Shown in pieces: positions 9,586-32,954 of a stretch of 64,000 bases of DNA. The notes beneath the pieces were generated by a model. The model had not been told where the DNA came from, did no database searches, and was given only the letters and a program-made list of their open reading frames with translations. Position 1 is the first letter of the stretch; every line of letters starts with the position of its first letter. The position numbers and the translations under genes are program-made. The DNA is from an uncultured Verrucomicrobiales bacterium (GTDB lineage: Bacteria; Verrucomicrobiota; Verrucomicrobiia; Verrucomicrobiales; Akkermansiaceae), in assembly GCA_937951675.1 (NCBI GenBank), contig CALFBI010000017.1, forward strand, positions 1 to 64,000, written 5' to 3'.

Positions 9586-11367
9586 TCAAGAAGGGAAAAT
9601 AAGACGTGGCCCAGAATCGGAGTCTTCGTCAGAAGAAGAGCCCTCAAGGGGCTCTGTCTGCGGAGGGATCATTTTTAAAGGCTTTGTTTTATGAAGTTGC
9701 GCATCTGCGGTGGCTAAAAACGGGTTTACAGGCGATTTAATCGTCCCAAATTGAACAGCCAGCATGCAAACATCATCATCAAAATGATCTGTGTGCGCAA
9801 AATTCAGCACGGCCTGCATGGCATCGTCCAACATCAAGTCAAGTGTTGCACCGGAATGATTCCTGACGACTTGAGCCAGCCTTTCTGTTTCGAAAGCTTC
9901 TCCATTCTCATCTTCACACTCAATGATGCCATCCGTGTAAAGAAGGATGCATTCAAGATCACTTAAGCCCAGTTCTGTATTCCCATAAGGAGCCCCAGGA
10001 AATAGGCCGATCGCGGGTCCCATGGATTGGGGGTCAAGCTTGAGCAACTCCGTCCGGTCCGAGTATCTCGCTACTGGAAGGGGATGGCCTGCGCTTGAAA
10101 TCACCATCGACTGCGCTTCGACATCGACGACCATATAGGACACCGTCGCAAACATTGTCGTCCCTGCGCGCTGTAAAATGGATGCTAAACTGTCATTAAG
10201 AGACGATAAAAAAGTAGCGGGATCAGCGGCATGTTGCTTCTCCTTCTCCAAAAGCCCTCGAATCATCGACACGACGAGAGCTGAACGCACCCCGTGTCCC
10301 ATCACGTCTGCAACGAGCATTCCTATTTTTGTTTCTGAAATAGGAATGAGCTCAAAGAAATCACCTGCCATACCGGTGCTCGGCCGATAACGATGGCTAA
10401 ACGAAAGACTCTGATCTCGATCTTCTGTATTCACCGGAAAACTTGGCAATGCCGAAGGTAAGAGAGCCTGTTGAATTTCTTTCGCTAATTGGAGCTCCTC
10501 TTCAATCATTTCGTTCCGACGCCTGAGTTCTTGCTGCGTCTTCACTAACTCCGTCACATTACTTGAAATCCCGAAAGTCCCGACCACCTTCCCTTGGTGG
10601 TTGCGCCAAGGCATTTTGGTTGTTTGAGCCCAGGTATCGGCACGCCCTTCCCAAGTCTCTTTCTCCAGGCGATCAACCATCGCTTCTCCTGTCCTAATGA
10701 TTTCTAGCTCGTCCTTAAAGGCCTGTTTGGCGTGAACCCCACCAAAAAAATCAGCATCCGTCTTCCCGAGGACGTCATCGAGACTTGGAGCTCCGAGCCA
10801 ATTAACAAGCCTCTCATTCACTAAGAAAAATCGTGACTCCCGGTCCTTAAAAAAAACACTGAGCGGAACATGGTCGATCACCATTCTTAATAAATTTCGC
10901 TCTGTTTCTAATGATTCTTCCGCGCTTTTTCGCTTCGAAATATCGATCATCGAACCCACCAGCCGAACCGCTTCATTAAAATGATTACGGACCACTGTCG
11001 CGCGGATACGAAGCCAAACCCAACTCCCATCTTGATGCCTCAGCCGGCTTTCAACTGCGAAAATATCTCCCTTTGTAATCGCTAATTCATAGGCTCTTAG
11101 GAAATTTGATAAATCGGAGCGGTGAATGTAAGTCTCTACATCCGCAAAAAAGTTAGGAGCTTGAGCTGGATCCCAGTCCAAGAAGGCTAAAATCTTGGGA
11201 GAATAAAAAATTTCTTCTGCTCCAATTTGCCAATCCCATATCCCTTCGTTTGAAGCTTGGAGAGCAAGCTCGAGACGATCCACAGAGGGTTCCATAACTG
11301 GTATTTGAACGGATTTCAGTGAAAAATTCAACCTGATTTCGCCAAACATTGCTTTTTTTAAGCTCAC
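9586..11367 (-). CDS. PAS-domain-containing PP2C/SpoIIE-family serine phosphatase (RsbU-like)
   Basis: Two PAS-like segments (…WDWQIGAEEIFYSPK…, …VIDHVPLSVFFKDRESRFFLVNERL…) followed by a PPM phosphatase domain (MAGDFFELIPI…LVADVMGHGVRSALV…LLYTDGIIE). Confidence 0.75.
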   Translation of the reverse strand: MSLKKAMFGEIRLNFSLKSVQIPVMEPSVDRLELALQASNEGIWDWQIGAEEIFYSPKILAFLDWDPAQAPNFFADVETYIHRSDLSNFLRAYELAITKGDIFAVESRLRHQDGSWVWLRIRATVVRNHFNEAVRLVGSMIDISKRKSAEESLETERNLLRMVIDHVPLSVFFKDRESRFFLVNERLVNWLGAPSLDDVLGKTDADFFGGVHAKQAFKDELEIIRTGEAMVDRLEKETWEGRADTWAQTTKMPWRNHQGKVVGTFGISSNVTELVKTQQELRRRNEMIEEELQLAKEIQQALLPSALPSFPVNTEDRDQSLSFSHRYRPSTGMAGDFFELIPISETKIGMLVADVMGHGVRSALVVSMIRGLLEKEKQHAADPATFLSSLNDSLASILQRAGTTMFATVSYMVVDVEAQSMVISSAGHPLPVARYSDRTELLKLDPQSMGPAIGLFPGAPYGNTELGLSDLECILLYTDGIIECEDENGEAFETERLAQVVRNHSGATLDLMLDDAMQAVLNFAHTDHFDDDVCMLAVQFGTIKSPVNPFLATADAQLHKTKPLKMIPPQTEPLEGSSSDEDSDSGPRLIFPS

Positions 11368-11864: not shown

Positions 11865-14800
11865 TCAACCTTCTTTTTCTTTCTCCTCTTGAACGGGAGC
11901 CATCCGCACTTCTACCGGCACGGACCAAAGTCGCTCCACCGCTTCTCGAAAATGTTTCACCGTTTCATCAGCAAGTGCTTGCGGCTGACTCGACTTTTTC
12001 GCTACTTCCGCAATTTGTGAACTCATTGAGGAAAGCCCCCCATTAAGCTCACTTAACTGAGCCACGACACGGGCCACAGGATCATTCTCTCCAGAACCTC
12101 CTAGTAGCTTCTGTTTTACAAATTCTTTCTTAATCTCTTCCCACCGAGCTTCTTCTTCTGGAGAGCAAATACCCTCCATTTCTCGGAACTTAAGAAGATT
12201 CGCTTCGGCGCCTGTTGTGAGGGTCTGAGATTCACTCTCGTAATGATCAATCACCAATTCTTTGACCTCTTCCGGAGTCATGAGAGGAACCACTTTTGCC
12301 GCAATCCGATTCATATTCCGGTAGGAACCTTGGAGTTTAAAAGCAGGCTCGGTGCGGTAAGCATCCTCTTGGGCCGCACTGCGAATGTATTCTAAATTCA
12401 CCCGAAGAATCCGATCTCGCACAATGGAAAGGTGCTTCATCACCGTGACCATTTCCTCAATCTCAGCGGGAGAGTAATTGCCTTCGAAATCGACCCCTTC
12501 ACTGCTTCCTTCGCGGGCGATTTGCATGATCGCGTAAACATCCTTTTGACTTCGTGATGCGAGCTTAGAAAGAACCTCATTCGAAGTCAGGCAGTTTTCA
12601 ATATAACTCGCCTCAAAAACAGAGGCGTGCCCTCCCAGGATATCACCCAGGTTATAAGTGTCGGCTCGGTTCGCTAACATATCGGGGATTTGGAACTTAC
12701 CTCCAGTCTCGGTATAGGGATTCCCTGCCATCACGATCCCTACTTTACGACCACGAAGGTCATAAGTTTTCGCCTTCCCATTAAAGACCCCTTCTACTTT
12801 TCGCTGCCCATCACAGAGGCTAATAAATTTCTGTAAGAGTTCCGGGTTCGTATGCTGAATATCATCGAGGTAAATCAAAACATTATCTCCCATCTCAAAA
12901 GCCAAATTAAGCTTTTTCACTTCCTCCCGGGCAGAAAGATTGGGCGCTTCATCAGGATCTAAAGAAACCACCTCATGTCCTAATGCTGGACCATTAATCT
13001 TCACAAAGGTTACCCCTAAACGAGAAGCCACGTATTCCATCAACGTCGTCTTCCCATAACCAGGAGGAGAAACTAGAAGAAGAAGCCCCATCCGATCGGT
13101 GCGAGTATCTGCACCAGCGGCTCCGAGTTGCTTCGCAAAGTTTTCACCAATCAAAGGAAGGTAGACCTCATTAATTAATTGGTTTCGAACAAAGGAACTC
13201 ATCACGCGAGGTTTGAATTCATCCAGTTTAAGAGCCTCCTTTTTTTCTTCGATCAGCTCATGCTTAAGCTCGTGTAACTCCTCATAAGCAGGCACCGCTA
13301 TTGCCTTGAACGAACGCATTTTTTCTCTAAATGCGTAGTAATTTGAAGAAAGACCTCCATCCCGAACCTGGCGATGAGAACCCATTAAGCCATTCACCAC
13401 AAAATCTGTCTCCAAGGCTGATACATTTCGCGCCGCAACCTCTCCAGTAACAAGCTGCACCGCAACTTCCCAGAGCCAGTCATTCATTGGAAGATGCTTG
13501 CTTAGGATTCCTGACGCCTGCACAAAAGAACGCAACCAATCTAACGAGACTCTTAATTGCATCGCTGGGTTTCCTTCGAAAACACTTAATCTTTCTTCAA
13601 ATTCTTTATTCGCTCTTTTTGCAGTGAGTTCATGGGAAAAACCAGCAAGGATTTGGCCAGCCTTGGCACTCATCACAAGAGTAGCTCCCTCACTCAATAC
13701 CTCATAAAGATATTCCGCAGCTTCTGCTGTCACGCCATCATCTGAACCCGACCACACACTACTGAGCTCAACAAAGGCTTTCTCTACGCCTTCTTTCAGC
13801 AAGGCAAGCAGATCTAAGTTCCTCGCGTCACTTCCAAATTTTTTACGAGAAGAACTATGGGCTTTCATATAGTCTACCATCACCTTCCCCGATTCCTCTT
13901 TCTGCATCCGACTCCAGAAGTAAACTCCTAAAGCACGAGCCAATGGCGAATAACGCCCCGCTCCGAGTTCTTGATGCAGAGGCTTCAAAACCATCAAAAT
14001 ACGATAAGCATCCTGATCATGAACTCCTTTTGTGTAAGACTCCTGATACCGTGGCTGCATGTATTCCTGCACCGACTCCAGAGTGACGGGACCACCCTCT
14101 AGATCGTCCTGCAAATATTGATAAGCAAGCCACTCTGCCCGATAAACTTGCGCGTTTTCGCTTACTATCTCCTGCCCCCAAGCTGAATGACTTGAAGACA
14201 CTTTTTCGTGATTAATATCTTCGTAGTAATGAGTTCCCGAAAGGTGGTAATACAAACCTTCTTCTTTCGGGACAATCGAAAGCTCTAAATCTTGCGTATT
14301 CACCGAAAAGGCATGCTTCCCGAATTGAATGATATTCTCTCCCTCCACGAAAAGCTCCTTGCGATCTTTAAGCTGCCGAACAGAGTCTTCTCTAATCGTT
14401 TTTAACTGAGCCTGTAATCCGTCCGCAGAGACTGATTCATTGAGGCCCTGAAGTTCTGCGATCACCTCGCGGACTTTTTCGACCATTAAATCACTCGCGA
14501 AATACCCATTGATTTCGTTAATCTCTGCGAACTGACCCGCTCGATTCCGAACCCCATTGAGAACTCGTTCTGCCGACTTCAAAAGCTGTCGCGCACGTTT
14601 CGTCTTTTGATCTAAAAGCGCCTGCTTTTTCCCTTCGAAAGCATCATGAACCTCTTCTCGTTTTTGGTGAATCTCATCGAGATAATCCTCGAATTCCGAA
14701 AAGCGCCCTTCTAGCTCCTCGACTTGAACCATGAGCTTTGTTTGATAACTCTCGCAGCGTTCTACCGTATCGGACAGATCCAAAAAGTTAACGACAGACT

Positions 14801-16877
14801 GGCTCAAAAGTTTCATCTGCGCTCCAAACTGGGCAGCCCCCTCTTCTTTCGCTAAATCATACCGAGCTTTTTTTAACTCTGCTCGCACCGTATTAAGAGT
14901 GGAATAGAGATTCGAAGCATCTTCGATAATCTTAGTCGTCTGCGTAGCATCTTCGATTTTAAGATTAGAAATCACCTCTATCAGCATTTCTAACTGCTCC
15001 CCATTTTCTGATAACTGCTCTGCAATATCATCTGCTTGGGTGACTTTCTCTATTTTAGAAATCGCCGTCTTTTGTTTGGTGATTTCATCCGCATAGGGTG
15101 TCAGAGCTTCTGGCTTCAAAAGAAAATCAACCGTTTGTTGAGACGTTTTCTCGGTTGCTTCTTGCAGCTGGGATTCCCATTCTTGAACCTTGGCCGCGTC
15201 GACATAACGCAGTTCTTTAAGGCCGATCACTTCTCCGCGACTTCCCCTCAAATCACTAAGGTGACTCACAAACCCAAAAATACCATCTGGAGGAGATCCT
15301 TTAACTTTTCTTAAAATATCACGGCACAATTCCCCAACTCGATTCAACTCTTCCGAGTGAGCCTGACGAAGTGATTGCACTTTTTCAAATTCATCAATCG
15401 CGGATTGAGAGGTTTTACGAATGCTCTCAAGTGGAGTTTTCAGCTCGAAACATTCTTCTTTTGAAAGCCAGAAATAGGAATCTATGACTTCTCCAGATTT
15501 TTGGGTAAGATCATAATAGAGACCTTCATAATTATCCTCTTTCTGAAGTAAGGTGAGAACCTCTCGGCATTCGGCCATTCCACGAACGAGATCTGTATTG
15601 CCTACTTTATAGAGAAATCCGTCCTGAGATTTACCGGCCGACAACATCGCGTCGTCGTCCAAAAACGAAGTTTGCCAGACCTGAATGGCATGGTGTTTTT
15701 GAGGCTGCTCTTCGGTTCGGAAGTAAAGCATTTCTCCTGACCCAAACACCGAATATCCATGACATAAGACCGGCGCTTCGACTTTCCGTGTGATCAAATT
15801 ATAAGAAAGAAGAACATAAACCCCGGACTTACGGTTATAAAAAACATACAGAAAATCTTCGCCATTTGCACTCGGGAGACGTTTCTCAAAATACATCTCG
15901 ATCAGCTCATTTTCGAAAACCTTGACTTCTCCTGTCGTCAAATAATACCCGTTCGCGAAAATCAAACCTTGGTCATCGGGCAGAAGCACACAGGACTCCC
16001 CAATGGCATCTAGACGATGCACCGTTTTTGTTTTTTCGTTATACGCGAGGTAACGATAAAGCTCTTCCCGATACGGAAGAATTTTCAAAAGAATGATAGG
16101 ACCTATTACAGCATAAAACACCTCGGCATCATCTAAACTCTGATCAAAATCTGTAACCGCCTCGGCATAAATCCCTTTTCCTGTAGAAGTGTTATCTTCA
16201 ATCTTAATGGTAAGATCTCCTTTGATCGTCTCAACAAACAAGCGGTCTTCAACCGAAATATGGGGATGCTCTCCTGAGCGATGCATATCTCGATGCGCGC
16301 GAACCCATTCGAATTCTTGCTGATCCGGGTATTGATATTCGTGATCAAACCGATTCCCTAAATATTCAAGAGGCCCTTCTCCGATAAGCCACTTAAAGGT
16401 CTTAATATCATTCAGGGAATGACCCACTCGCATCACCATATAAAGATGAGCACCTCGAGTCATAAATTTTATAAAACTCGCGTTTTTATAGTAGCGGAAA
16501 ACGTATTCAAAATCTTCTTTGAATGCGGGAGCACCTAGAAAATCTTCGAGCTCCAAACGATGGAAGACATGCTCTTCCTTCTCGTAATGATAAACCGAAA
16601 AAATATCTTCAATATTTGTCGTCTTTTTTAAGCCGAATTGAATATTATACCCGAAAAGAAAATGATCTTCCCCAACCGGAATCATATCACGAGGGATACA
16701 ATGATGATCTGTCGTGATCCTTTCTGTTGAGACGAGCTCGGTTTCAACCGCCCCAAAGACCTCTTTGCGTGACGTATTGAGCGACTCTAATCGAGCACGC
16801 AGGTCTTCTCCAGATTTTAGAAGTCGGGTTCGGATGACTTCATAAGCGCCACCTTCGAGTTGTTGTTTTTCAGACAT
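11865..16877 (-). CDS. Giant (1670 aa) cytoplasmic protein. It has an unknown N-terminal domain (~480 aa), a long coiled-coil region (~400 aa) and a C-terminal MoxR/AAA_5-class ATPase domain. It possibly belongs to the poorly characterised 'DUF3686 / DNA-repair-ATPase-like' giant ATPase family
   Basis: Walker A LLLVSPPGYGKTTLMEYV (coded near 13030–13090); Walker-B-like VLIYLDDIQH; MoxR-like sensor segment VGIVMAGNPYTETGGKFQIPDMLANRADTYNL (compare MoxR ...ATQNP.E.EGTYPLPEAQLDRF). A central ~400-aa E/K/Q/L-rich heptad-like region (…EELNRVGELCRDILRKV… through …KQALLDQKTKRARQLLKSAE…) suggests coiled coil. No TM segments. Last gene of a co-oriented flotillin operon. Confidence 0.65.
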   Translation of the reverse strand: MSEKQQLEGGAYEVIRTRLLKSGEDLRARLESLNTSRKEVFGAVETELVSTERITTDHHCIPRDMIPVGEDHFLFGYNIQFGLKKTTNIEDIFSVYHYEKEEHVFHRLELEDFLGAPAFKEDFEYVFRYYKNASFIKFMTRGAHLYMVMRVGHSLNDIKTFKWLIGEGPLEYLGNRFDHEYQYPDQQEFEWVRAHRDMHRSGEHPHISVEDRLFVETIKGDLTIKIEDNTSTGKGIYAEAVTDFDQSLDDAEVFYAVIGPIILLKILPYREELYRYLAYNEKTKTVHRLDAIGESCVLLPDDQGLIFANGYYLTTGEVKVFENELIEMYFEKRLPSANGEDFLYVFYNRKSGVYVLLSYNLITRKVEAPVLCHGYSVFGSGEMLYFRTEEQPQKHHAIQVWQTSFLDDDAMLSAGKSQDGFLYKVGNTDLVRGMAECREVLTLLQKEDNYEGLYYDLTQKSGEVIDSYFWLSKEECFELKTPLESIRKTSQSAIDEFEKVQSLRQAHSEELNRVGELCRDILRKVKGSPPDGIFGFVSHLSDLRGSRGEVIGLKELRYVDAAKVQEWESQLQEATEKTSQQTVDFLLKPEALTPYADEITKQKTAISKIEKVTQADDIAEQLSENGEQLEMLIEVISNLKIEDATQTTKIIEDASNLYSTLNTVRAELKKARYDLAKEEGAAQFGAQMKLLSQSVVNFLDLSDTVERCESYQTKLMVQVEELEGRFSEFEDYLDEIHQKREEVHDAFEGKKQALLDQKTKRARQLLKSAERVLNGVRNRAGQFAEINEINGYFASDLMVEKVREVIAELQGLNESVSADGLQAQLKTIREDSVRQLKDRKELFVEGENIIQFGKHAFSVNTQDLELSIVPKEEGLYYHLSGTHYYEDINHEKVSSSHSAWGQEIVSENAQVYRAEWLAYQYLQDDLEGGPVTLESVQEYMQPRYQESYTKGVHDQDAYRILMVLKPLHQELGAGRYSPLARALGVYFWSRMQKEESGKVMVDYMKAHSSSRKKFGSDARNLDLLALLKEGVEKAFVELSSVWSGSDDGVTAEAAEYLYEVLSEGATLVMSAKAGQILAGFSHELTAKRANKEFEERLSVFEGNPAMQLRVSLDWLRSFVQASGILSKHLPMNDWLWEVAVQLVTGEVAARNVSALETDFVVNGLMGSHRQVRDGGLSSNYYAFREKMRSFKAIAVPAYEELHELKHELIEEKKEALKLDEFKPRVMSSFVRNQLINEVYLPLIGENFAKQLGAAGADTRTDRMGLLLLVSPPGYGKTTLMEYVASRLGVTFVKINGPALGHEVVSLDPDEAPNLSAREEVKKLNLAFEMGDNVLIYLDDIQHTNPELLQKFISLCDGQRKVEGVFNGKAKTYDLRGRKVGIVMAGNPYTETGGKFQIPDMLANRADTYNLGDILGGHASVFEASYIENCLTSNEVLSKLASRSQKDVYAIMQIAREGSSEGVDFEGNYSPAEIEEMVTVMKHLSIVRDRILRVNLEYIRSAAQEDAYRTEPAFKLQGSYRNMNRIAAKVVPLMTPEEVKELVIDHYESESQTLTTGAEANLLKFREMEGICSPEEEARWEEIKKEFVKQKLLGGSGENDPVARVVAQLSELNGGLSSMSSQIAEVAKKSSQPQALADETVKHFREAVERLWSVPVEVRMAPVQEEKEKEG

Positions 16878-16963
16878 CAGAATATCACGTATAATCTGCC
16901 CCTCGCTCCTCTTGATGAGAAACGGGATAAAGGCTTTTTTATATTTCCTTACTTGGGAAATAG

Positions 16964-16988
16964 AGGGGTGGCTATTTCAGCCACCCCT
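16964..16988 (-). other. Stable GC-rich hairpin between flotillin and giant-ATPase genes (no U-tract)
   Basis: AGGGGTGGCT-atttc-AGCCACCCCT perfect 10-bp stem, 43 nt downstream of the flotillin stop and 87 nt upstream of the ATPase start. Not followed by a T-run on either strand. Candidate RNA processing/stability or attenuator element within the operon. Confidence 0.4.
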
Positions 16989-17030
16989 TATGGAATCAAA
17001 CCCAATAAAGAATGAATCCAAGATTCTTTC

Positions 17031-19064
17031 TTAGTTTTTCAAAGAGCTCATCACATCGATCGCGCTTTGGCCATCAATCCCGAATCGCTCTGCGGCACCA
17101 AGAACCCCAATCATCTTCTGACGAGTTTCTCCTTTGGCTTCCCCGATGAGCTTACCGAGAAGAGCGCTTACCGAGAGGTTTTTGAGGTCTTCAGGCGCCA
17201 CTCCGAAATCATCTAACCAGGTAGAAAGCTGACCTTTGAAATATTCTGGATCACCATTAAAGAATGTTTCTTTCACATCAGTAAGAACATGACTGTTACT
17301 TACCATTCGGTCTACGGACTTCCCTTGTGTCACTGATTTCGTAATCCGGTCGAAGAATTCAGCCTCTCCACCTACGATATCAATATTAGAATGTTTAAGT
17401 GCTTCGCCGACTACTTTTGCCTGTTCGGCAGCAACCTGGCGCTGAACATCAATTTCAGCAAGTTCGACCACTTTCTCTTTTTCAAGTTCGAGCTTAAACT
17501 CTTCGTGCTCTTGTCCTGCTTCCTCAAAGAGCTTCATCGCTGCAGCCTTCTGCTTGATCGCATCCGCATCAGCGACTCCGGTTGCTCGAATAACCTCCGC
17601 TTCGCCAAGGCCTACTGCCGCAGACTCTTTCACAACCGCTTCGGCTAATACGATCTTAGCCTCGGCTTCCTTCTCTGATGCAGACTGCTCCGCCTCGGCA
17701 GAGATGATTCTTTCCTCTGCTTTCATCGTAGCGGCCTGACGTGAAGCTTCTGCCTCTTTCACAACAGTGAAGGCGTCCTCTTCCGCTTTAAGGGCCGCGG
17801 CATCTTTACGAGCGGCGGCTTCTTTGACTTCCTTGATGAGAACCTCTTCCGCATCTGACTCAGCCGCCGTAATCGCGACTTTTTTGAGACGATCAGCCTC
17901 TGCAAAAGCTTCGGTGTCTTTGATCATCTCTTGTTCTTTCACAACTGTTTTCTCCACCGAGAGGCGCTCTCTAATCACATCTTGGATTTCCTTCTTCTCG
18001 ATCTCGACTGATTTTTCTTTTTCGATCGACTTGAGGGCCGTGACACGTTCGCGCTCGATCGCCTCGAGAGAGCGATCACGCTCTACTCTTTCAATTTCAA
18101 CGGCATCGGTGCGTTCTTTATTTCTCTGTGCGATGAGAACTTGTCGGTCTTTATTTTCTTCTGCAATCTGAAGCTCTTCTTCTGTCGAAATACGAGCATG
18201 CTCAGATTTATAACGCTCTTCCTCTCTCACCTTATCGGCTTCGGCTTTTTCTCGCAGTTGCACGACTTGCACTTCACGGCCTTGTTTGGCTTCGGTCTCC
18301 GCGAGCTGTCGTTCGAGTTCTAAAATGGCTTCTCGTGCTTCAACATCTTGTTGTTTGATGACTTGCTCGCGGTCGCGCTCAATTTTATTAGTGAGCTTTT
18401 TCTGCTCAGAAGTTCGGTTCGTGATTTTTTTAATCCCTTCCGCATCCAAGATATTATCCGGATCAAGAAACTCAATCGGAGTCTGCTCTAAGTAATCAAT
18501 CGCAGCATCTTCTAATACAAATCCATTAAGATCTGTTCCGATCACATTAATAATCTCATCGCGGAATTTATCACGGTCTTCATAAAGCTGAGTGAAGTCA
18601 AAGCGCTTCCCTACCGTTTTAAGAGCCTCGGAGAACTTTGCGTCAAAAAGGATTCTGATTTCAGACTCGCTCGAGGCTCTTTCACACCCGATCGCCTGTG
18701 CCACACGAAGCACGTCTTCATCTGTCGCGCTCACTTTCACGAAAAAGGCGACCTTGATGTCAGCCCGCATATTATCTTGGCAAATCAGCCCATTCTTCCC
18801 TGTTCGGTCGAGTTCGATCCGCTTGAGTGAAATATCGATCCCTTCTAATCTATGAAGAATAGGGAAATAAACCATCTTATCGAAGGCTACTTTCGTTCCT
18901 CCTTGGCCTGTTCGGATGAGAGCGTTCCCTTTTGATACTTTCTTCAGGAATGTTGCGTAGACAAATCCGACGAGGACGACGATGGCGATCAGGATTCCGA
19001 GTCCAAAGGCGATCACGACGCCGATTTTTTCAACTCCTGCTATTATTGGTATTAGGTTGTTCAT
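17031..19064 (-). CDS. Flotillin-family SPFH/Band-7 protein (YqiK/FloT-like) with long C-terminal coiled coil
   Basis: N-terminal TM hairpin then SPFH core (…LIRTGQGGTKVAFDKMVYFPILHRLEGIDISLKRIELDR…RADIKVAFFVKV…), followed by ~350 aa of E/A/K/R-rich repeats typical of the flotillin helical region. 20 nt downstream of the YqiJ-like gene stop. Confidence 0.85.
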   Translation of the reverse strand: MNNLIPIIAGVEKIGVVIAFGLGILIAIVVLVGFVYATFLKKVSKGNALIRTGQGGTKVAFDKMVYFPILHRLEGIDISLKRIELDRTGKNGLICQDNMRADIKVAFFVKVSATDEDVLRVAQAIGCERASSESEIRILFDAKFSEALKTVGKRFDFTQLYEDRDKFRDEIINVIGTDLNGFVLEDAAIDYLEQTPIEFLDPDNILDAEGIKKITNRTSEQKKLTNKIERDREQVIKQQDVEAREAILELERQLAETEAKQGREVQVVQLREKAEADKVREEERYKSEHARISTEEELQIAEENKDRQVLIAQRNKERTDAVEIERVERDRSLEAIERERVTALKSIEKEKSVEIEKKEIQDVIRERLSVEKTVVKEQEMIKDTEAFAEADRLKKVAITAAESDAEEVLIKEVKEAAARKDAAALKAEEDAFTVVKEAEASRQAATMKAEERIISAEAEQSASEKEAEAKIVLAEAVVKESAAVGLGEAEVIRATGVADADAIKQKAAAMKLFEEAGQEHEEFKLELEKEKVVELAEIDVQRQVAAEQAKVVGEALKHSNIDIVGGEAEFFDRITKSVTQGKSVDRMVSNSHVLTDVKETFFNGDPEYFKGQLSTWLDDFGVAPEDLKNLSVSALLGKLIGEAKGETRQKMIGVLGAAERFGIDGQSAIDVMSSLKN

Positions 19065-19084
19065 TGTGCTTCTTGTTGTTGTTT

Positions 19085-19747
19085 TTAAAGGGAGCGAACG
19101 AGGTATTCTCCTGAATCCCCGTCATATTTATAAATAAGCACCTCTGTGTCCCGAGGTAAGTCCTCGGAGCCTTCTGGTGTTCTTGCGTTGAGATAAGTGG
19201 TTCCTCCTCGGTGCTCGAGCTTCACTTGCCCTCCTCGACTAGAGAGAGAGCTGGTTCGGACAACCGCTGTTTTCCCGATGATAGGGTCTTTCGCTTCATC
19301 TTCTTTGAAGCTTGTAAATAATGGGCTTAAAGGCGCGGTCAACCCTTTCGTCAAGAAGGTTGAGCCGACTAAAGCAGTAAGAGGCCACCATCCCGCGAAA
19401 AAAGGAAGGTTGAGTCCCGCCATCGCCAGATGACCTACCATAATGAAGACCCATAAAACCACGACGAGAAAAGAGAGAACCACCATGACCGGAACATCTG
19501 CCGCGTTCATGAATTTCATCACTCCCTGAATCTGGTCAAGAAAACCAGAAGAGCTAGACGAAGCAGAACCCGCTTCGGCCTCAAGGCCTTCCTGAGAAAT
19601 CTCTGTATCGGATTCAAAATCAATATCTAAAAAATCCAAATCAAGAAGCCCTAACAAACAGAATCCCCAGTAGATAAAAATAGGAGCTAAGAGAATTGTA
19701 AAAGGAAGCACTTCATTGCTCACTGCTAATTCAAGTAAATCTCTCAT
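19085..19747 (-). CDS. YqiJ/NfeD-like membrane protein (flotillin-associated; DUF1449-type with C-terminal OB-fold)
   Basis: N-terminal TMs (LPFTILLAPIFIYWGFCLLGLLDL; VMVVLSFLVVVLWVFIMVGHLAMAG) and a C-terminal beta-rich segment (GKTAVVRTSSLSSRGGQVKLEHRGGTTYLNARTPEGSEDLPRDTEVLIYKYDGDSGEYLV) resembling the NfeD OB-fold. Canonical position immediately upstream of a flotillin gene, as in yqiJK. Confidence 0.6.
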   Translation of the reverse strand: MRDLLELAVSNEVLPFTILLAPIFIYWGFCLLGLLDLDFLDIDFESDTEISQEGLEAEAGSASSSSSGFLDQIQGVMKFMNAADVPVMVVLSFLVVVLWVFIMVGHLAMAGLNLPFFAGWWPLTALVGSTFLTKGLTAPLSPLFTSFKEDEAKDPIIGKTAVVRTSSLSSRGGQVKLEHRGGTTYLNARTPEGSEDLPRDTEVLIYKYDGDSGEYLVRSL

Positions 19748-19954
19748 GACATAAAGATAAAATAGGAATGACGCGTTTTAAGCGATTATAATTCTTCTCC
19801 TTTTTTTTACACCCCTCTCCTCCAAAAGGAAATCCTCTCTTTGAGTAATCAAATCGATCTCTAGCGGAACTTTCAGAGAAGTCAGAGTTCCCATCTTGAC
19901 TCACTCTGCTCATTAATTCATGATGAAAAGTGGCATTAATACTTCTCTTTTATC

Positions 19955-20515
19955 ATGAAATTACACCTTCTTCTAGGAACCGCCTTCTTATTTTACAGCG
20001 CCCTCTTTCTCTCTGCTGAGCCTATCTCAAACTCAGAAGCCAAAATTCAAGCGAACCTTTACCAAGCAGGTCTTACGGCGGTGGATCAAGGAAACCTTTC
20101 CGAGGCAAAGCAGCATTTTTCAAAAATATTACAGCGCAATCCTCAGCATGCCCATGCTCGCTACCAACTTCTCCATCTCAATGATAAAAAGGGACGCGTC
20201 GCGATTAATGCTCGGAAAAGCCGGCTCAAACAAGTCACTCTAACGAAAGTTTCCTTCGATGGGCTCTCCGTCGCTGATGCTGTGGACGGATTTAACCATC
20301 TTGTTTCAGAGGCTACCGGCAACTCATTCTCTCCTAATTTAGTCCTTCGAGACCCTCAGAAAAAACTCGCCTCGAAGAAAATTTCCCTCGAGCTTCAATC
20401 CGTTCCTGCCCATGTTGCTCTCAACTATATTGCTGAGAATATGGGAGCCTCTCTTAAATATGACGAGTTCGCCGTCATCTTATCGCCACTTCCTACCACC
20501 GCGTCGCCAAACTAA
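19955..20515 (+). CDS. Small secreted protein with secretin/TonB N-terminus (STN)-like domain, function unknown
   Basis: Signal peptide MKLHLLLGTAFLFYSALFLSA. The pattern …VTLTKVSFDGLSVADAVDGFNHLV…NLVLRDP…ISLELQSVPAHVALNYIAENMGASLKYDEFAVIL resembles the STN/secretin-N0 motif. Confidence 0.35.
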   Translation: MKLHLLLGTAFLFYSALFLSAEPISNSEAKIQANLYQAGLTAVDQGNLSEAKQHFSKILQRNPQHAHARYQLLHLNDKKGRVAINARKSRLKQVTLTKVSFDGLSVADAVDGFNHLVSEATGNSFSPNLVLRDPQKKLASKKISLELQSVPAHVALNYIAENMGASLKYDEFAVILSPLPTTASPN

Positions 20516-25719: not shown

Positions 25720-28700
25720 TCATTTTACGGTTGAAAGCTGTTTACGCAAATGAACCGCAGTGACCGATCTCTCATGATCACACACTTTTTCTGGGGTGCC
25801 TGCGATCACGATTTGCCCGCCCAAGTCACCAGCCTCAGGGCCCATATCGATTAAGAAATCTGCTTCTGCCATCACCGCCGTATTATGCTCAATCACGACG
25901 ACGGTATGCCCTTCGTCGACCAGTCGATGAAGCACCTCGATCAACCTTTTCACATCTTGTTGATGCAAGCCAATGGTGGGTTCCTCGATCAAATAAAGAT
26001 TCTGCTTCGCCTGCATCATTTTGGCCGGGTTGACTCTCCCCTTCGCTAATTCTGCGACCAACTTCATCCGCTGCGCTTCTCCCCCTGATAAGGTTGGGCT
26101 CGGTTGCCCCAACTGCAAATAACCTAACCCCGTTTCATTGAGTAAGCGAAGGGTTCGACTTAATTTCGGATGATTTTCAAAAACGGCTACCGCATCTGCA
26201 ATCGGCAAACGCAAGATTTCACCAATATGATAACCTCTATAACTAATTTCGAGTGTCGACTCATGATAACGTTCACCGTGACAAGATTCACAAGGCACCC
26301 AAGTCGTGGGCAAAAAATCCATCTCGAGTTTCACACGCCCGTTTCCTTTGCACTCTGGGCATTGACCTTCTTTATTATTAAATGAAAAGCGGCTCGCCGT
26401 ATACCCTCTCATCCGAGACTCTGGAACATTCGCGAAAAGTTTCCGAATATCATCAAAGATTTTCACGTAAGTCGCCGGACACGAGCGCGAAGTCTTCCCA
26501 ATAGGAGATTGATCTACCTCATAACAAGCATGCAAAGAATCAAACCCGCTTAGTGACTTCCAAGTCTTATCGCGAATCGTTTTCTTTCGGCTTAAAACAT
26601 GTTCTGCGGCAACTGCTAGAGTTCCCCGCATTAAAGATGATTTACCACAACCAGACACTCCCGAAATCACCGTGAGCCGTTGAAGCGGAATCTGCACATT
26701 CACCTTTTTCAAATTATTATAAGTGCATCCTTTCAAGGACATCCAGGCCTCTTTTTTTCGCAATGAAGGAAGGGCCCGGCGCTCTCCTCGTAATGGATGA
26801 GCTAAGGGGCTCGCGTAAGAAGAAAGAGTGGGCGATTTTAAATACTTACCTCGCTCCTTAACGCTAAGGTTTTTCGGGGACACTCCCTCATAAACAACTT
26901 CTCCTCCTAATCTTCCCGCACCTGGGCCTAGATCAATGAGGTGACCAGCTCTTTCAATTGTTTCTTCGTCATGCTCGACCACAATCAGAGAATTCCCCTG
27001 ATCTCTCAACGACTCTAAGGTCCCTAACAACCGCTCATTATCGCGAGGATGCAGCCCGATGGTGGGCTCATCTAAAACATATAGAACCCCATTGAGATTC
27101 GACCCAAGCTGCGCCGCAAGACGAATCCTCTGAGCCTCTCCTCCCGATAAAGTCGTCGCACTACGATCAAGCTGCAAATAAGACAGCCCTACCTCTTCTA
27201 AGAAAGAGAGCCGTTGCGAAATTTCAGGAAGAATATCTCTCGCGATCTCTGCTTCCCGCCCTTCAAAACAAAATGATTCAGAGACCTCTTTAGCCTCCGA
27301 AACAGACATTGCAGTCAATTCAGGTAACGAATAGGAATGAATCTTAACCGCTCTTGAAGATGGGTTTAATCGGTTCCCTTCGCAGTCTGGACAGGGCAAA
27401 ATCTCCTCATCAGTTTTCTTTTCATGATTCCGATCAGCGGCTAATTCAGCCTCAAGCGCCGAGTTATAATCCGCTTCTCTAAACGTTTTTTTCCCTCGTG
27501 ATATCGTCCCATATCCTCGACAAGTCAGGCACCACCCACGGGGGGAGTTATAAGAAAAATGGGCCGGGTCTAATTCTTCAAAAGACTCTCCGGTCGCCAA
27601 GCTCACTCGTGAAGTCGATAGAATACGAAGCTTCTTTTTCGAATCAAGAATCCGAACGGCCCCCTTTCCGTGCTTTAAGGCGAGTTCTACGGCACTTGCA
27701 ATTTGCGGAAGCTTGGTCTTTTTAGAAACTTCCGCAATCACCACATCAAGATCATGCTCTTGATATCTCTCCAAAGGCTCAAAATCTTCCACCTGGCAAA
27801 GCATTTGGTCCACTAGTAACGATGTAAATCCCTGCTTTCCAGCCCAAGTTGCCACTTCAGAATGATACCCTTTTTTATTCCTAATAATAGGAGCCATCAC
27901 CATCACCTTTCCGCTCTTCGCCTCACGAAAAACTTGCTGCGTGATCGCATCCGCCGTTTGCGAAACAACGGCTTCGCCCGAAGCCGGGCAATGCTGTATC
28001 CCTACCTTGGCATAGAGAAGTCTCAGAAAATGGTAAATCTCAGTCACCGTTGCCACCGTTGACTTCCCTCCTCCCTGTGAGATGCTTTGCTCGATCGCAA
28101 CGGTCGGAGGAAGGCCTGAAACACGATTCACATCAGGCTTTTCTAGTTGCTCTGCAAATTGACGAGCATACGGTGACATCGAATCTAGAAAACGGCGTTG
28201 CCCTTCCGCAAAAAGAAGGTCAAATGCCAGAGTGGATTTCCCTGAACCACTTAACCCAGAAATAACCACCAACTCATCACGAGGGATTTGAAGATCGATG
28301 TTTTTCAGATGATGTTGACGAGCTCCACTGATTTCAATGACTGCCTTCTTTTTACTGGCTCTCTTTTTTACTGGAGGGGCTGAAGTTTCTTCCCCTTTCA
28401 TCTGAGAAGCTAAATAAGATCCCGTGATTGATCCGGACAAAGCCAGCTCCTGCGGGGTTCCCTCTTGCACTACCCCCCCTCCTTGATCTCCAGCTCCTGG
28501 CCCCATTTCAATGACATAGTCAGAGGCTAAAATAACATCTAGTTGATGCTCAATCACAAGTAGAGAGTGCCCACGCTCGACAAGATCCTGAAACAAATCT
28601 AACAAGTTCTTAATGTCATCAAAATGCAAACCCGTCGTGGGCTCATCAAGGATCATCAGAGTGTTTGACTTCTTTTCTCTCAATAGTTTACAGAGTTTCA

Positions 28701-31269
28701 ACCTCTGGCTTTCTCCTCCGGAAAGAGTGTTCAAAGCCTGCCCCAAGCGCAAATACCCAAGCCCTACTGACAATAGGGACTCCAGCCCTTTAAGAACATC
28801 CTTACGGAGTTTATCAAATTTTTTAGTTCCCTCTTCATCACTCCCTAAATGAGAGAAAAACTCCTGTGCCGAAGTCACCGTCATCCCTAGGATATCAGCG
28901 ACCGACTGCCCTTCGAGTTGATACTGCAAAGTGCTTGTTTGGTAGCGTCTCCCCTGACAATCGGGACAAGTAAGGAAGAGATCTGAAAGAAATTGCATTT
29001 CTATTTTTTCAAAACCATTCCCAGCACAACGCTGACAACGCCCCTGACCTGAATTGAAAGAAAAATACCCGGGCGTTAATCCCGCTGCTTTAGCCTCTGG
29101 AGTCAAAGTGAACAACTGCCTCACCCCGTCAAAAAAACCTAAGAATACTGCAGGAGTTGAACGAGGGGTTCGAGCCAAGGGGGACTGATCTACTAAAAGA
29201 ACCTGATCAACATGATGAGCTCCTTTTAAACCATGAAGATAACCCATTTCGCCCTCCGAATGTTGACCTAATTCCCGCGCCAAATTTTCATACAAAATAG
29301 AATGCACAAGAGTAGATTTCCCCGAACCAGAAACACCTGTCACAGTGCAAAAAACTCCGAGAGGGATTTTCACACTTAATTTTTGAACATTATGATGAGA
29401 GGCTCTGACCATCGAAAGAAACCGCTTCGGCTTTCTTTTTTCTTCCGGGAAAGACAATCTTATTTGCCCTGTGAGATACTTCAAGGTTCTCGATTGAGAC
29501 GACTTCCGACGAGGAGATCCTTCGTAAACGACCTGCCCTCCGTTTTCTCCAGCTTCTGGGCCAATATCGATTAAGTGATCTGCGGATCGCATCACTCTTT
29601 CCTCATGCTCTACCACGACCACCGTATTTCCCTTATCTCGAAGATCATGCATCACTTTGATCAAAGCATCGATGTCTCGAGAATGTAATCCCACGGTGGG
29701 TTCATCGAGCACAAATAAAGTATTCGCTAAAGACGCCCCTAAACATGAAGTCAGATTCACACGAGCCAACTCTCCTCCTGATAGAGTTCGAGTCGGCCTC
29801 TCTAAGGTCAAATACCCTAAGCCTACTTCACAAAGGTATTGAAGCCGGTGCTGAATTTCTTCCAAAATAAGCTTCGTCGTATGGTCTGCCTTTTGGTGCT
29901 CCTTCATTAAACTCTCACTCCATTGTGACAGCTCACTTACTTGCGTTCTCCAAATTTGCGGTAAGGTTTTCCCTGCCACTTGAAAGCAAAGCGCTTCTGG
30001 CTTTAAGCGGGAGCCCCGGCACTCGCCACACTCCGTATAAGAGCGATAACGGGACAAAAAGACTCTAACATGCATTTTATAGGCCTTCGTCTCTAACCAA
30101 TCAAAGAAACCTCTAATTCCATACCATTTCCCCTGCTCCCAAAGTTCCTCACTTTGCTCAAGACTACTTTTTTTCGAGGTATGAGGACGTTCACCATAGA
30201 GAACCCAATCCTTTTCTTCCTCGCTCAAATGCTCATAAGGACTCTCTAGATCAATTTCTACTTCAGAGGCACAACGTCTCAAATCACGTAACGCTTCTTC
30301 ACCTCGCTCGCCTTGGAAAGGTTTGATGCATCCTTCTTGAATCGACAATGATTCATTGGGAACGGCCTTTTTTAAATCAATTCCAATCACTCTCCCAAAA
30401 CCGCGACAAGTAGGGCATGCCCCAATTGGAGAATTAAAAGAAAACAACCCCGAACTCGGAGCCGGGAGAGTAAACCCTGTAGCAGGATTTAACCACTGTG
30501 TTGAAAAAGCTTTCTCTTCGCCTTCGAGATCTACCACGAGACGGCCTTTACCCAAAGTGAGAGCCTGCTCGATCGCCTCACTCAATCTCGACTTCTGCCG
30601 GGAGGAGAGCTTGATACGATCTTGCACAACCATGATCTCTCTCTCTGGAAGAGAAAGGCCTTCGGGCAAAGGCTCATCTGAGCGGTATAGCTTCCCCTTA
30701 ATCAGAAAACGTAAATATCCCTGAGACTGTAAAAAGGGCAGTAATTGATCTGCCTCAACTTTTTCGGGGAGTATCACTGGAAACAAAATAAGAGCGGCTT
30801 TCCCAGCTCTCTCTTTCTCCAGACACCAGGTAAGAATAGAGGCGCTATGATCTGGCTTAATCTCTTCTTGCGTAACAGGATCAAAAGCTCGCCCTAAACG
30901 GGAAAATAAAAGCTTCAAGTAGTCATTCACCTCCGTCAGCGTCCCCACCGTCGAACGGGTGGTGCGAACCTGGTTTTTCTGCTCAATCGCAATGGCAGGA
31001 AGAATCCCATCAATCTGGTCGACCGCAGGCTTATCCATTCGGTCAAAAAACTGTCTCACATATGGAGAAAAAGTCTCTACATAGCGACGCTGCCCTTCTG
31101 CATAAAGAGTCTGGAACGCAAGCGACGACTTCCCTGAACCTGAACGCCCTGTAATCACCGTCAATTGCCCCTTCGGGATTTGAAGGTCAATATTCTTGAG
31201 GTTATTTTGGCGGACTCCTCGCAGTGAAATGAATTCGCGAGAAATTTGATCAGAAAAACAGCTAGGCAC
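25720..31269 (-). CDS. uvrA: Excinuclease ABC subunit A, tandem-duplicated (two complete UvrA units fused; 1849 aa, four ABC nucleotide-binding domains)
   Basis: Four Walker A sites in UvrA context: N-term …[36 protein letters not shown]; ~res 640 …[19 protein letters not shown]; ~res 960 …[37 protein letters not shown]; ~res 1530 …[14 protein letters not shown]. Also multiple ABC signature LSGGE(A/S)QR motifs and Zn-finger Cys clusters ([28 protein letters not shown]). Confidence 0.9.
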   Translation of the reverse strand: [1849 protein letters not shown]

Positions 31270-31322: not shown

Positions 31323-32954
31323 TTAAAGAGCTAAAAGCACTCTCGCAAAACCTTCCGGTTTGCCTTTAAAGCCTTGTAAATAGGCTCGAAGCGCACGCAC
31401 CCCTGCTTGGTCTTTAGAAGCTTGAAGTTCCTTCATCTTATCTTCTGCCTGCTTTAGGAATGCTTGGTGAGACTCCGCAAGAGTATTTCCTAGGCCAGTA
31501 AGTTGTTCATCATACATCCCCTTCAGAGTTCTATAACGGTTAAAGAATGAATCAGTAACCCCTGCTTCATCTTTTTTTACTGGCAAGTATGCAAGAGACT
31601 TCAGCGTTTTTATATTCTGAGCAAGTTCCTCTACTTTCTTTTCTAAGTCGGAGCTTCCTGACCGTTTCATTTTCCGAATTTCAGCCCGCTCAAAGCGATC
31701 CATCATTCTTTCCATTCGTTCCGTGAACTCACTTATTTGGGCTTGAGCCTCGTCAGATTTCACCGCTTGCAAATGTGTCTTAGACCAACTTTCCACGTCG
31801 AAATCTGATACCATGACGCTCGGCTCGTTAGACTCTGCTTCAGAGGGTTTTTCTTCAGAACCATTCGCTAAAGCGGTAGGATCTGAACTTGGCTGAGGGT
31901 CGCTAGGCTCTCCTGTTACAGAGGTCTTTTTTTCTGAAGTCAGAGCTTCTTCTATCGGACCAGAAAGATTTTCTTCCTCTGATTTTTTCCCTCCTACGAG
32001 CGCAGAAAGCCCTCCTAAAATAGCAAGTGCAGCCACTCCGGCGCCTACAAGAATCAATTTTTTGACATCCCAAGAGCCATCTTCAGAGGACTTACCTTTT
32101 TTCGCTTTTATTTTTGATTTTCTCTTTCCTTGGACAACTTCAAGAGCTCGATCTAAATCTTCGCTCATTTCTTCACAGCTCTTGTAACGATCCTTACGAT
32201 TTTCAGACATCGCTTTCTCAATGATCGCATCGAGTTCCTTAGGGCAACCCACGACTGTTGAAGGAGGTAAGCCTAACTCTCCTGGGAGTGAACTTGTTAA
32301 AAGCTGATGCAACATGGCCCCCACCGAATAAATATCGGCTCGCAAATCAACATTATCGGGATCATTTACCACTTCAGGAGCTGTATATCCAGCCGTTCCG
32401 AAAATGACGCCGTCGGCATCCGCTGCAGAATCTTTCGAGCTACTCGCGAGCCCGAAATCTCCAATTTTAGGGAGCGCTTTTGCCGAAGTAAGGAAAATGT
32501 TGCCTGGCTTAATATCCCTATGAAGAATATCAGCATCATGGGCATGCCCTAGCCCTAGAAGGACTCCCTTCGTGATTCTAATTGCATCTTCGGGTTCTAC
32601 AATTTGCTCAAATGTCGACTCGTAAAGAGATTTCCCGTCGACATATTCCATGACGATATAGAGCATTCTACCGACCTCTCCGAAATCGTGGAGCGCGACA
32701 AGGTTGGGGTGATTCAACCGAGCCATTGCTTTCGCCTCAGCAATGAATTGCTGCGCGAAAATGCGGTCAGCGGAAAGCTCTTTTGGCAAAAACTTAATCG
32801 CAACAGGGCGATCAATTGATTTCTGACGGGCTTTATAAATGGCCCCCATGCCTCCTTGTGCTAAAAAAAGCTCAAAAGTATAATTAGGGAGTAGAGCTTG
32901 AAGCTCATCCATCGGAGGAATTTCAAATTCCAGGGCTTCTTCAGCTTCTACCAT
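31323..32954 (-). CDS. Membrane-anchored Ser/Thr protein kinase (Hanks-type)
   Basis: Kinase subdomains: GGMGAIYKA…VAIKFL, HRDIKPGNIFL, DFGLA, GTAGYTAPE. A single TM helix (…LILVGAGVAALAILGGLSALVGG…) and a C-terminal extracytoplasmic helical tail. Confidence 0.85.
   Translation of the reverse strand: MVEAEEALEFEIPPMDELQALLPNYTFELFLAQGGMGAIYKARQKSIDRPVAIKFLPKELSADRIFAQQFIAEAKAMARLNHPNLVALHDFGEVGRMLYIVMEYVDGKSLYESTFEQIVEPEDAIRITKGVLLGLGHAHDADILHRDIKPGNIFLTSAKALPKIGDFGLASSSKDSAADADGVIFGTAGYTAPEVVNDPDNVDLRADIYSVGAMLHQLLTSSLPGELGLPPSTVVGCPKELDAIIEKAMSENRKDRYKSCEEMSEDLDRALEVVQGKRKSKIKAKKGKSSEDGSWDVKKLILVGAGVAALAILGGLSALVGGKKSEEENLSGPIEEALTSEKKTSVTGEPSDPQPSSDPTALANGSEEKPSEAESNEPSVMVSDFDVESWSKTHLQAVKSDEAQAQISEFTERMERMMDRFERAEIRKMKRSGSSDLEKKVEELAQNIKTLKSLAYLPVKKDEAGVTDSFFNRYRTLKGMYDEQLTGLGNTLAESHQAFLKQAEDKMKELQASKDQAGVRALRAYLQGFKGKPEGFARVLLAL

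Follow-up and report, generated by a model that had tools for sequence, protein, structure and literature searches.

What does a giant ATPase do beside a flotillin? We take up this question for a locus in the first 64,000 nucleotides (nt) of contig CALFBI010000017.1 (assembly GCA_937951675.1), from an uncultured Verrucomicrobiales bacterium of the Akkermansiaceae; the whole of this stretch is referred to below as the window. A preliminary description of the window, made from the sequence, had singled out three co-oriented minus-strand genes with short gaps, encoding a YqiJ/NfeD-like membrane protein, a flotillin and a very large protein with an AAA+ ATPase domain. The open reading frame (ORF) map of the window agrees with this in every respect: the genes are co-directional on the minus strand in the order YqiJ-like protein, flotillin, ATPase, and the gaps are 20 and 153 nt. 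The coordinates of the three genes (lengths in amino acids, aa) were taken from the ORF map and the translations.

19085..19747, minus strand: YqiJ/YuaF-like membrane protein, 220 aa
17031..19064, minus strand: YqiK-type flotillin, 677 aa
11865..16877, minus strand: giant AAA+ ATPase, predicted to be cytoplasmic, 1670 aa

The arrangement of these genes was followed across genomes in a sample of 80 loci from a pattern search and one Oceaniferula locus, in which ORFs were called and searched with profiles. The loci come from Verrucomicrobiota, Planctomycetota, Bacteroidota, Desulfobacterota, Clostridia, one metagenome-assembled genome (MAG) labelled "proteobacterium" and one source of unknown origin, and 61 of them, with at least 3 kb of upstream DNA, could be assessed for synteny. 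An orthologous flotillin was found directly 5′ of the ATPase on the same strand at 58 of the 61 assessable loci, and a partial flotillin was present at a further 9 truncated loci; a YqiJ-like gene preceded the flotillin at 49 of the 58. A flotillin profile run over 1.6 Mb of flanking DNA gave no match besides the flotillins of the triads themselves. The gap between the YqiJ-like and flotillin genes has a median of about 18 nt, and that between the flotillin and ATPase genes ranges from −11 nt (two Clostridia loci) to 2.4 kb and does not exceed 36 nt at 13 of 55 loci. Further, the pairwise identities of the ATPases and of the flotillins are correlated (r = 0.79), indicating co-divergence, and the triad is intact where the flanks differ, as between the window and Oceaniferula. 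The order of flotillin and ATPase is also kept on the Pseudomonas plasmid pQBR103 and on a Streptomyces plasmid, where it reads hypothetical protein, flotillin, ATPase. The preliminary description had proposed a neighbourhood-conservation check, with a lack of association between ATPase and flotillin genes as the outcome that would speak against a common system; with adjacency in at least five phyla, the check was passed decisively and such a lack is clearly not what we see. We conclude from these sequence comparisons that the triad is a conserved functional unit.

The association is not new, since Ravi et al. (mSystems 2024, PMC11237479; bioRxiv 2020) have described an operon that consists of a YqiJ/YuaF protein with three transmembrane segments (3TM), a Band-7/flotillin protein and a novel AAA+ ATPase with a β-propeller and a coiled coil, and that belongs to the phage-shock (membrane stress) gene network. 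They report a long form, which includes a CesT/Tir-PspA dyad, and a widespread abbreviated form without the dyad; the abbreviated operons, which contain flotillin and YqiJ/YuaF and sometimes the ATPase, are distributed more widely (PMC11237479). For these operons, ATP-dependent or chaperone-like assembly of membrane complexes was proposed (PMC11237479). The earlier view that the giant ATPase falls outside the described yqiJK/floT operons must therefore be withdrawn, as both the operon and its abbreviated form were already in that work. The window contains the same three proteins in the same order and on one strand: a YqiJ/YuaF-type 3TM protein, a flotillin (recognised by hhalign against YqiK) and an ATPase in which the Pfam architecture and the AlphaFold2 (AF2) model show a β-propeller-like domain, long helices and an AAA+ domain, with the co-directional adjacency of the genes borne out by the gaps in the window and by the counts given above. 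It differs from the long form in that the CesT/Tir-PspA dyad, a feature of the long form only, and the helix-turn-helix (HTH) regulator are not present, and because the dyad is absent we regard the window as the abbreviated form. The gene string that Ravi et al. give for Dokdonia donghaensis (ANH61663.1) is reproduced in the Flavobacteriaceae loci L052, L059, L060, L062, L067 and L075-L077 of our sample, as a divergent cHTH gene and then CesT_Tir, PspA, YqiJ-like protein, flotillin and ATPase. From this we infer that the published ATPase would belong to the DUF3686 family, as does that of the window, an assignment that rests on architecture and on synteny in the same bacterial family rather than on a direct comparison with the Dokdonia protein. 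Overall, the locus is a verrucomicrobial example of a published, computationally described operon family and is ordinary for its clade; what is new here is the quantified synteny, the finding that curated flotillin models miss this subfamily, and a family-wide Asp-Asp Walker B motif in the ATPase.

The identities of the two smaller proteins, as given in the preliminary description, hold, though solely by profile methods. The 677-aa protein comprises an N-terminal membrane anchor, an SPFH domain, a coiled coil rich in Glu, Ala and Lys (E/A/K) and a conserved C-terminal region. Searches of Pfam, NCBIfam and PDB sequences returned nothing significant for it, even when an 18-sequence profile was used against the PDB; the Pfam models Band_7 (PF01145) and Flot (PF15975) did not match even at E <= 10, and the NCBIfam FloT model scored 16 bits against a cut-off of 700. 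The homology is detectable by profile-profile comparison only: a profile of 18 orthologues aligned by hhalign with Escherichia coli YqiK (MG1655) with a probability of 99.9% (E 2.9e-35, 32% identity over 391 columns), the alignment spanning the membrane anchor, the SPFH domain and the coiled coil. Database labels of the orthologues read "flotillin family protein" or "YqiK", and a precomputed Pfam domain is recorded for 0 of the 120 closest orthologues (P0121-P0240). The curated Band_7 and Flot models thus miss this flotillin subfamily.

The translation of the 220-aa protein shows three hydrophobic stretches, the first of them followed by an acidic D/E-rich linker, and a soluble, β-rich C-terminal tail. 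It has no Pfam or NCBIfam match, a BLASTP comparison of the single protein with YqiJ was marginal (E 0.004), and a word-indexed homologue search turned up 5 relatives only, which suggests that this small protein evolves fast. Since direct searches were too weak, a set of 54 orthologues was assembled from synteny, and the profile built from it matched E. coli YqiJ along its full length (hmmsearch E 1e-14, residues 3-195; hhalign probability 96.9%). The orthologues also show weak matches to PF21001 YqiJ_N (E 0.002-0.005). The Pfam NfeD model is unmatched, and the C-terminal tail can be aligned with the corresponding end of YqiJ. Among the closest known systems are the NfeD-flotillin dyads E. coli yqiJK and Bacillus subtilis yuaFG (floT): the 3TM protein of the window is homologous to YqiJ and its flotillin to YqiK, and yqiJK has the same gene order with a short gap. 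The E. coli locus differs in having no downstream ATPase gene, yqiK being followed by sibD/ibsD, and the flotillin of the window differs from YqiK in being about 120 aa longer and in escaping Pfam Band_7.

The preliminary description had given the ATPase an N-terminal domain, a coiled coil of about 400 aa and a C-terminal AAA domain, and this layout is roughly right. The following segments were assigned.

15471..16805, minus strand: DUF3686 (PF12458, E 8.5e-180), N-terminal helix and β-rich, β-propeller-like domain, aa 25-469
14358..15656, minus strand: helical region of about 430 aa (aa ~408-840) with spectrin-like helical bundles and long helices, from the AF2 model
14862-15110, minus strand: DUF7902, aa 590-672, inside the helical region, from Pfam
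12558..13118, minus strand: single AAA+ core, aa ~1254-1440, from Pfam, conserved columns and Foldseek
11868..12557, minus strand: C-terminal ~230 aa past the AAA+ core, helical (lid and extension), from AF2 helices

The AF2 model of residues 1-700 (mean predicted local distance difference test score, pLDDT, 81.7) shows an N-terminal helix, a β-rich domain that contains all of its strands (aa 47-402) and then helices. In the model of residues 690-1670 (mean pLDDT 71.4), long helices extend to about aa 840 and are followed by a small β unit, a helical domain (~aa 913-1144), the AAA+ core and a helical C-terminal region. When the N-terminal domain was compared with the PDB by Foldseek, the best matches were mainly β-propellers (prolyl oligopeptidase, the WD40 domain of Vps11, CyRPA, paraoxonase), with E values of 1e-5 to 1e-4 and probabilities of about 1.0; the template-modelling scores were low, and the propeller assignment is therefore of moderate strength. 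In the AAA+ core, the Walker A motif is SPPGYGKTT (aa 1270-1278), and the Walker B motif is LIYLDDIQH, with D1338-D1339 (window 12861-12866) providing an Asp where most AAA+ proteins carry Glu. Walker A was found in 82 of 85 family members from the fetched loci and Walker B in 78 of 85. An alignment of 34 diverse members shows conservation of Walker A, of the Asp-Asp Walker B (hhYhDDIQH), of N1386, which sits where sensor 1 is expected, of R1404 and of a C-terminal FKLQGSYRNM; within this family motif (FKLQGSYRNMN in full), F1513, Q1516, G1517, S1518, Y1519, R1520 and M1522 are invariant.

To which AAA+ clade the core belongs is less clear. The preliminary description had placed it in the MoxR/AAA_5 class, and a likeness to MoxR proteins (RavA, NorQ, CbbQ) does exist, in that AAA_5 matches at 25 bits (cut-off 22) and NorQ is among the structural neighbours. 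However, for the one AAA domain found by Pfam (aa 1266-1358) the generic AAA model scores higher (34.5 bits), with AAA_22 at 27.6 bits, and in Foldseek searches RuvB came first, followed by Skd3/CLPB, NorQ, p97, Lon and HslU (E 5e-4 to 2e-2), so that NorQ is equalled or surpassed by RuvB, Skd3, p97, Lon and HslU. Because the best Pfam match is to generic AAA and the structural neighbours are all about equally weak, the specific MoxR assignment is unsupported. The ATPase is also five times longer than MoxR proteins. A partner gene with a VWA domain did not come to light: gene maps for 82 loci show no further conserved neighbour cluster, and the cluster representatives scanned against Pfam, which do not comprise all neighbouring ORFs, include no VWA domain.

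The ATPase belongs to a large family, of which more than 4392 homologues were found. The N-terminal 700 aa form 935 clusters at 50% identity, and of the first 600 matches to a pattern among 185,579 species genomes at least 585 belong to the family. The 119 nearest homologues share 55-60% identity with the protein of the window and, where named, come from Verrucomicrobiota except for one labelled Paracoccaceae; the exact sequence of the window's own ATPase was found in no recorded contig. One orthologue (P0023) carries the label "phage shock protein A", and a PspA-like segment inside the ATPase was considered on that account; the idea was dropped, as the PspA profile gave E >= 0.19 for the 85 members. 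Two MAG loci contain broken versions of the genes, which may be pseudogenes or assembly frameshifts: at L051:9920-14866 the ATPase is split into two ORFs (776 and 887 aa), and at L005:7331-9776 the flotillin is in overlapping fragments.

A second, less constant set of genes accompanies the triad. A PspA/IM30 gene (PF04012, E 2.5e-40) was found within 10 kb of the triad at 16 of 33 Bacteroidota loci, and at 2 Phycisphaerae loci a PspA gene stands 3′ of the ATPase. At 14 Bacteroidota loci the triad comes after a divergent HTH regulator gene, a CesT_Tir_1 gene (E 1e-56) and PspA, in that order. The PspA and CesT_Tir profiles had no match in the 64-kb window or in 25 Verrucomicrobiota loci. Three Bacteroidota loci have DUF4178, DUF350 and spermidine-synthase-like genes downstream, and on pQBR103 the triad comes after YjfI, PspA, rhomboid, DUF2491, DUF350, DUF1190 and glutathionylspermidine synthase-like genes. 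This plasmid of P. fluorescens SBW25 (L083:986-14190) has ten genes on the same strand, in which the yjfI-yjfJ(PspA) set and a rhomboid protease are joined to genes labelled hypothetical, SPFH and "DNA repair ATPase"; thus, the two PspA operon classes of Ravi et al. are fused on a megaplasmid. A connection between SPFH proteins and PspA has also been seen in B. subtilis, where the SPFH protein YdjI is needed for localisation of PspA to the membrane (PMC8581546).

Two side observations concern the same kind of neighbour. In Oceaniferula spumae (AP026866.1, L001:953-6521), four genes directly upstream of the triad and on its strand encode an arginine decarboxylase, a saccharopine-dehydrogenase-family protein, an Orn/DAP/Arg decarboxylase and an arginase-family protein; the set looks like a polyamine biosynthesis cluster and echoes the polyamine links reported for PspA operons. 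Further, two Pedosphaera-like loci (L057 and L068) have a PLD-like gene near the triad (PLDc_2, E 3.7e-29), and at L057:8422-12573 and its L068 counterparts the ATPase is followed by an acidic coiled-coil protein on the opposite strand, the PLD-like protein and a large protein with multiple transmembrane segments. A PLD link had been reported for "some Proteobacteria" and is here seen in Verrucomicrobiota.

Whether the ATPase gene of the window is transcribed together with the flotillin gene depends in part on the 153-nt spacer between them. The preliminary description had noted a GC hairpin but no terminator in this spacer. The hairpin, identified in the sequence and by RNA folding, is indeed there.

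16965..16987, minus strand: GC-rich hairpin GGGGTGGCT-GAAAT-AGCCACCCC with a 9-11 bp stem

It lies 43 nt past the flotillin stop codon, and the whole spacer folds with -53.2 kcal/mol (z = -4.63). That there is no terminator is not established: TCTATTTC, with 5 T in 8 bases, comes 3′ of the hairpin and makes it terminator-like. A terminator scan did not include the hairpin at 16965-16987 among its calls, and an Rfam search of the region found no family. The hairpin is possibly a partial terminator or an RNA-stabilising element; part of transcription may end after the flotillin gene, and the ATPase gene may also have a promoter of its own. In other loci the spacer between flotillin and ATPase is an insertion hotspot, occupied according to lineage by small genes, among them those for PDDEXK_3 nuclease-like proteins and for a 140-185-aa protein of cluster 35. 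Examples of such inserts are L001:9410-9784, the cluster-24 ORFs (124-141 aa) immediately 5′ of the ATPase in L003, L006 and L009, and the cluster-35 genes in L025, L040 and L041.

What, then, would the three proteins do together? For the machinery that builds and dismantles flotillin scaffolds and PspA polymers in bacteria, the operon offers a concrete and widely conserved candidate. In the scheme that we favour, the flotillin would be anchored by its N-terminal hydrophobic segment and would oligomerise through its SPFH domain and coiled coil into a scaffold beneath the membrane, on the cytoplasmic face. The YqiJ-like protein would be its partner in the membrane, much as in the NfeD-SPFH dyads already known. 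The AAA+ domain would mediate oligomerisation of the ATPase, which would dock by way of its propeller and helical region onto the flotillin assembly and, where PspA is encoded alongside, perhaps onto PspA polymers as well. ATP would then be spent to assemble, remodel or dismantle the flotillin/PspA assemblies in membrane stress or repair. Of this, the sequence comparisons show the gene identities, the domain architecture, the synteny across phyla and, in some lineages, the linkage to CesT/Tir-PspA and to polyamine/DUF350 genes, whereas the topology, the physical contacts, the oligomeric state, the substrate and the triggering stress are inferred. An ATP-driven, flotillin-coupled membrane-stress system of this kind, as the preliminary description had envisaged, would be in line with what has been published and with the PspA genes found beside the triad. 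We think it probable that the locus, an abbreviated (PspA-less) operon, is a module for envelope stress or membrane maintenance in which ATP serves to build or take apart flotillin assemblies, and possibly those of PspA, when the membrane is under stress. The DUF3686 family is a good candidate for an ATP-driven regulator of bacterial flotillin and PspA assemblies.

Several observations weigh against this scheme. The gap between flotillin and ATPase is variable, up to 2.4 kb, and often contains inserted small genes, and at three loci (L035, L038 and L049) the ATPase has no flotillin nearby; inspection of these three by eye revealed no evident substitute SPFH protein, and the upstream genes looked unrelated. 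Neither the window nor any of the 25 Verrucomicrobiota loci contains a PspA gene, so that a PspA link here would be in trans, as has been suggested in print for PspA, or absent. The terminator-like hairpin in the 153-nt spacer means that co-transcription of flotillin and ATPase is not assured in this genome. The family carries Asp-Asp rather than Asp-Glu in Walker B, so that catalysis may be unusual, and with several AAA+ clades matching about equally weakly the mode of action may be threading or clamp-like. Finally, the literature searched contains no paper that names DUF3686/PF12458 or that tests the ATPase experimentally.

A more specific form of the scheme, which we consider doubtful, is that the DUF3686 ATPase is the bacterial functional counterpart of Vps4, disassembling or recycling flotillin cages and co-encoded, ESCRT-III-like PspA polymers; if this is true, no regulator of bacterial flotillin microdomains that is driven by nucleotides was known before it. 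The likeness to Vps4-ESCRT-III is a functional analogy only, between AAA+ ATPases genetically coupled to a membrane-remodelling polymer, PspA being a member of the ESCRT-III superfamily. The ATPase is no homologue of Vps4: it has no MIT domain, and its likeness to classical AAA proteins consists of weak P-loop matches, those to VAT, Cdc48 and Rix7 in the PDB covering ~60-95 residues only (E about 1e-5 or weaker). Moreover, the constant partner of the triad is flotillin, not PspA. According to a 2025 review, bacteria appear to lack a Vps4-like ATPase, and the roles of the Band-7 proteins that accompany PspA are undetermined (PMC7619361). In a rival reading, the flotillin would control the enzyme rather than be acted on by it. 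HflK/C-FtsH combines a scaffold of the SPFH family with an AAA+ enzyme at the inner membrane. By this precedent, the flotillin cage would confine or regulate the ATPase, and the substrates would be not the flotillin and PspA polymers but other membrane or membrane-associated proteins that are extracted, unfolded or chaperoned. Control of an AAA+ enzyme by SPFH cages is well established (Ma et al. 2022 is reportedly the reference for HflK/C-FtsH), the unfoldases Skd3/CLPB, p97, Lon and HslU are among the structural neighbours of the core, and the synteny fits this reading as well as it fits the favoured one. It is plausible, and the present data do not tell it apart from the favoured reading; we judge it unlikely nonetheless. 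The ATPase of the window has neither a protease domain nor a transmembrane segment to anchor it, no canonical aromatic pore-loop motif was evident by eye after the Walker A helix, and the recurrent partners are PspA and CesT/Tir, not obvious clients. The SPFH subfamily also differs, being that of flotillin/YqiK, and the scaffold of the window is presumed to face the cytoplasm.

The preliminary description had also raised a sensor-effector arrangement as in conflict systems, in which the flotillin and the YqiJ-like protein would be a membrane effector or sensor in anti-phage defence and the ATPase an NTP-dependent switch. Some features of other loci point that way: the Oceaniferula triad adjoins an E2/E1/JAB ubiquitin-like cluster and a deaminase, the spacer often holds small nuclease-like inserts such as PDDEXK_3, and one copy is on the megaplasmid pQBR103. 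There is also a match of the ATPase to the PADLOC IetA model, weak (E 4.6e-4) and confined to the P-loop region; beyond such P-loop noise, no model in PADLOC-DB 2.0 matched any of the three proteins. No copy was found in 50,697 phage records, and 13 of 72,556 plasmid records contain one, these being mostly of 0.17-2 Mb with three of chromosome size. The flanks in the window are housekeeping genes (malQ, panD, secG, rho, ATP synthase, carB and dxs), the partner genes elsewhere are envelope-stress genes, and the closest homologues, with 55-60% identity in all 119, are nearly all verrucomicrobial where named, which suggests mainly vertical descent. A role in conflict is on this evidence very unlikely. 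The name given to the orthologues by NCBI, "DNA repair ATPase", which has its parallel in the Pfam description of DUF3686 as "ATPase involved in DNA repair", would make the protein a repair enzyme that merely adjoins a flotillin operon. Apart from these names, the weak P-loop matches to RuvB could be cited in its favour, but they cover about 50 residues round Walker A and reach 25 bits against a cut-off of 282. The Pfam scan found no DNA-binding or nuclease domain, the literature searched contains no paper that backs the name, and flotillin adjacency at 58 of 61 loci across phyla is beyond chance. We find a function in DNA repair hardly credible and conclude that the database name is probably misleading.

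Upstream of the triad, the YqiJ-like gene shares its 5′ intergenic region with a divergent gene; both were placed by the ORF map, and the intergenic region also by sequence.

19748..19954, minus strand: intergenic region of 207 nt, 5′ of the YqiJ-like gene and common to the divergent TPR gene
19955-20515, plus strand: TPR gene, divergent from the operon

The intergenic region is the presumed promoter region of the operon. A sigma-70 scan of the minus strand found no convincing match in 19748..19954, and its models do not cover verrucomicrobial promoters. The operon region has a GC content of 0.445-0.465, slightly lower than its surroundings. According to a Pfam scan of the window, the TPR gene is followed upstream by malQ and an alpha-amylase-family gene, and the downstream neighbours are a PAS-PAS-SpoIIE phosphatase gene, panD and secG. 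The rest of the window includes rho, genes for ATP synthase subunits, carB, dxs, a double UvrA-like gene and two Ser/Thr kinase genes, and the earlier characterisation of the surroundings as housekeeping is a fair one.

Some genes of the window deserve separate mention. The PAS-PAS-SpoIIE (PP2C) phosphatase gene (9586-11367, minus strand) lies 497 nt 3′ of the ATPase gene on the same strand and is not kept beside the triad in the other 81 loci. At 59941-61725 (plus strand), a 594-aa ORF amid housekeeping genes matches no Pfam family at E <= 1e-5. At 25720-31269 (minus strand), a 1849-aa protein with two UvrA domain sets and many ABC/P-loop matches appears to be a UvrA paralogue that arose by duplication. 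Next to it come the Ser/Thr protein kinase genes at 31323-32954 and 33053-35662, the second of which encodes a kinase with a C-type lectin-like region.

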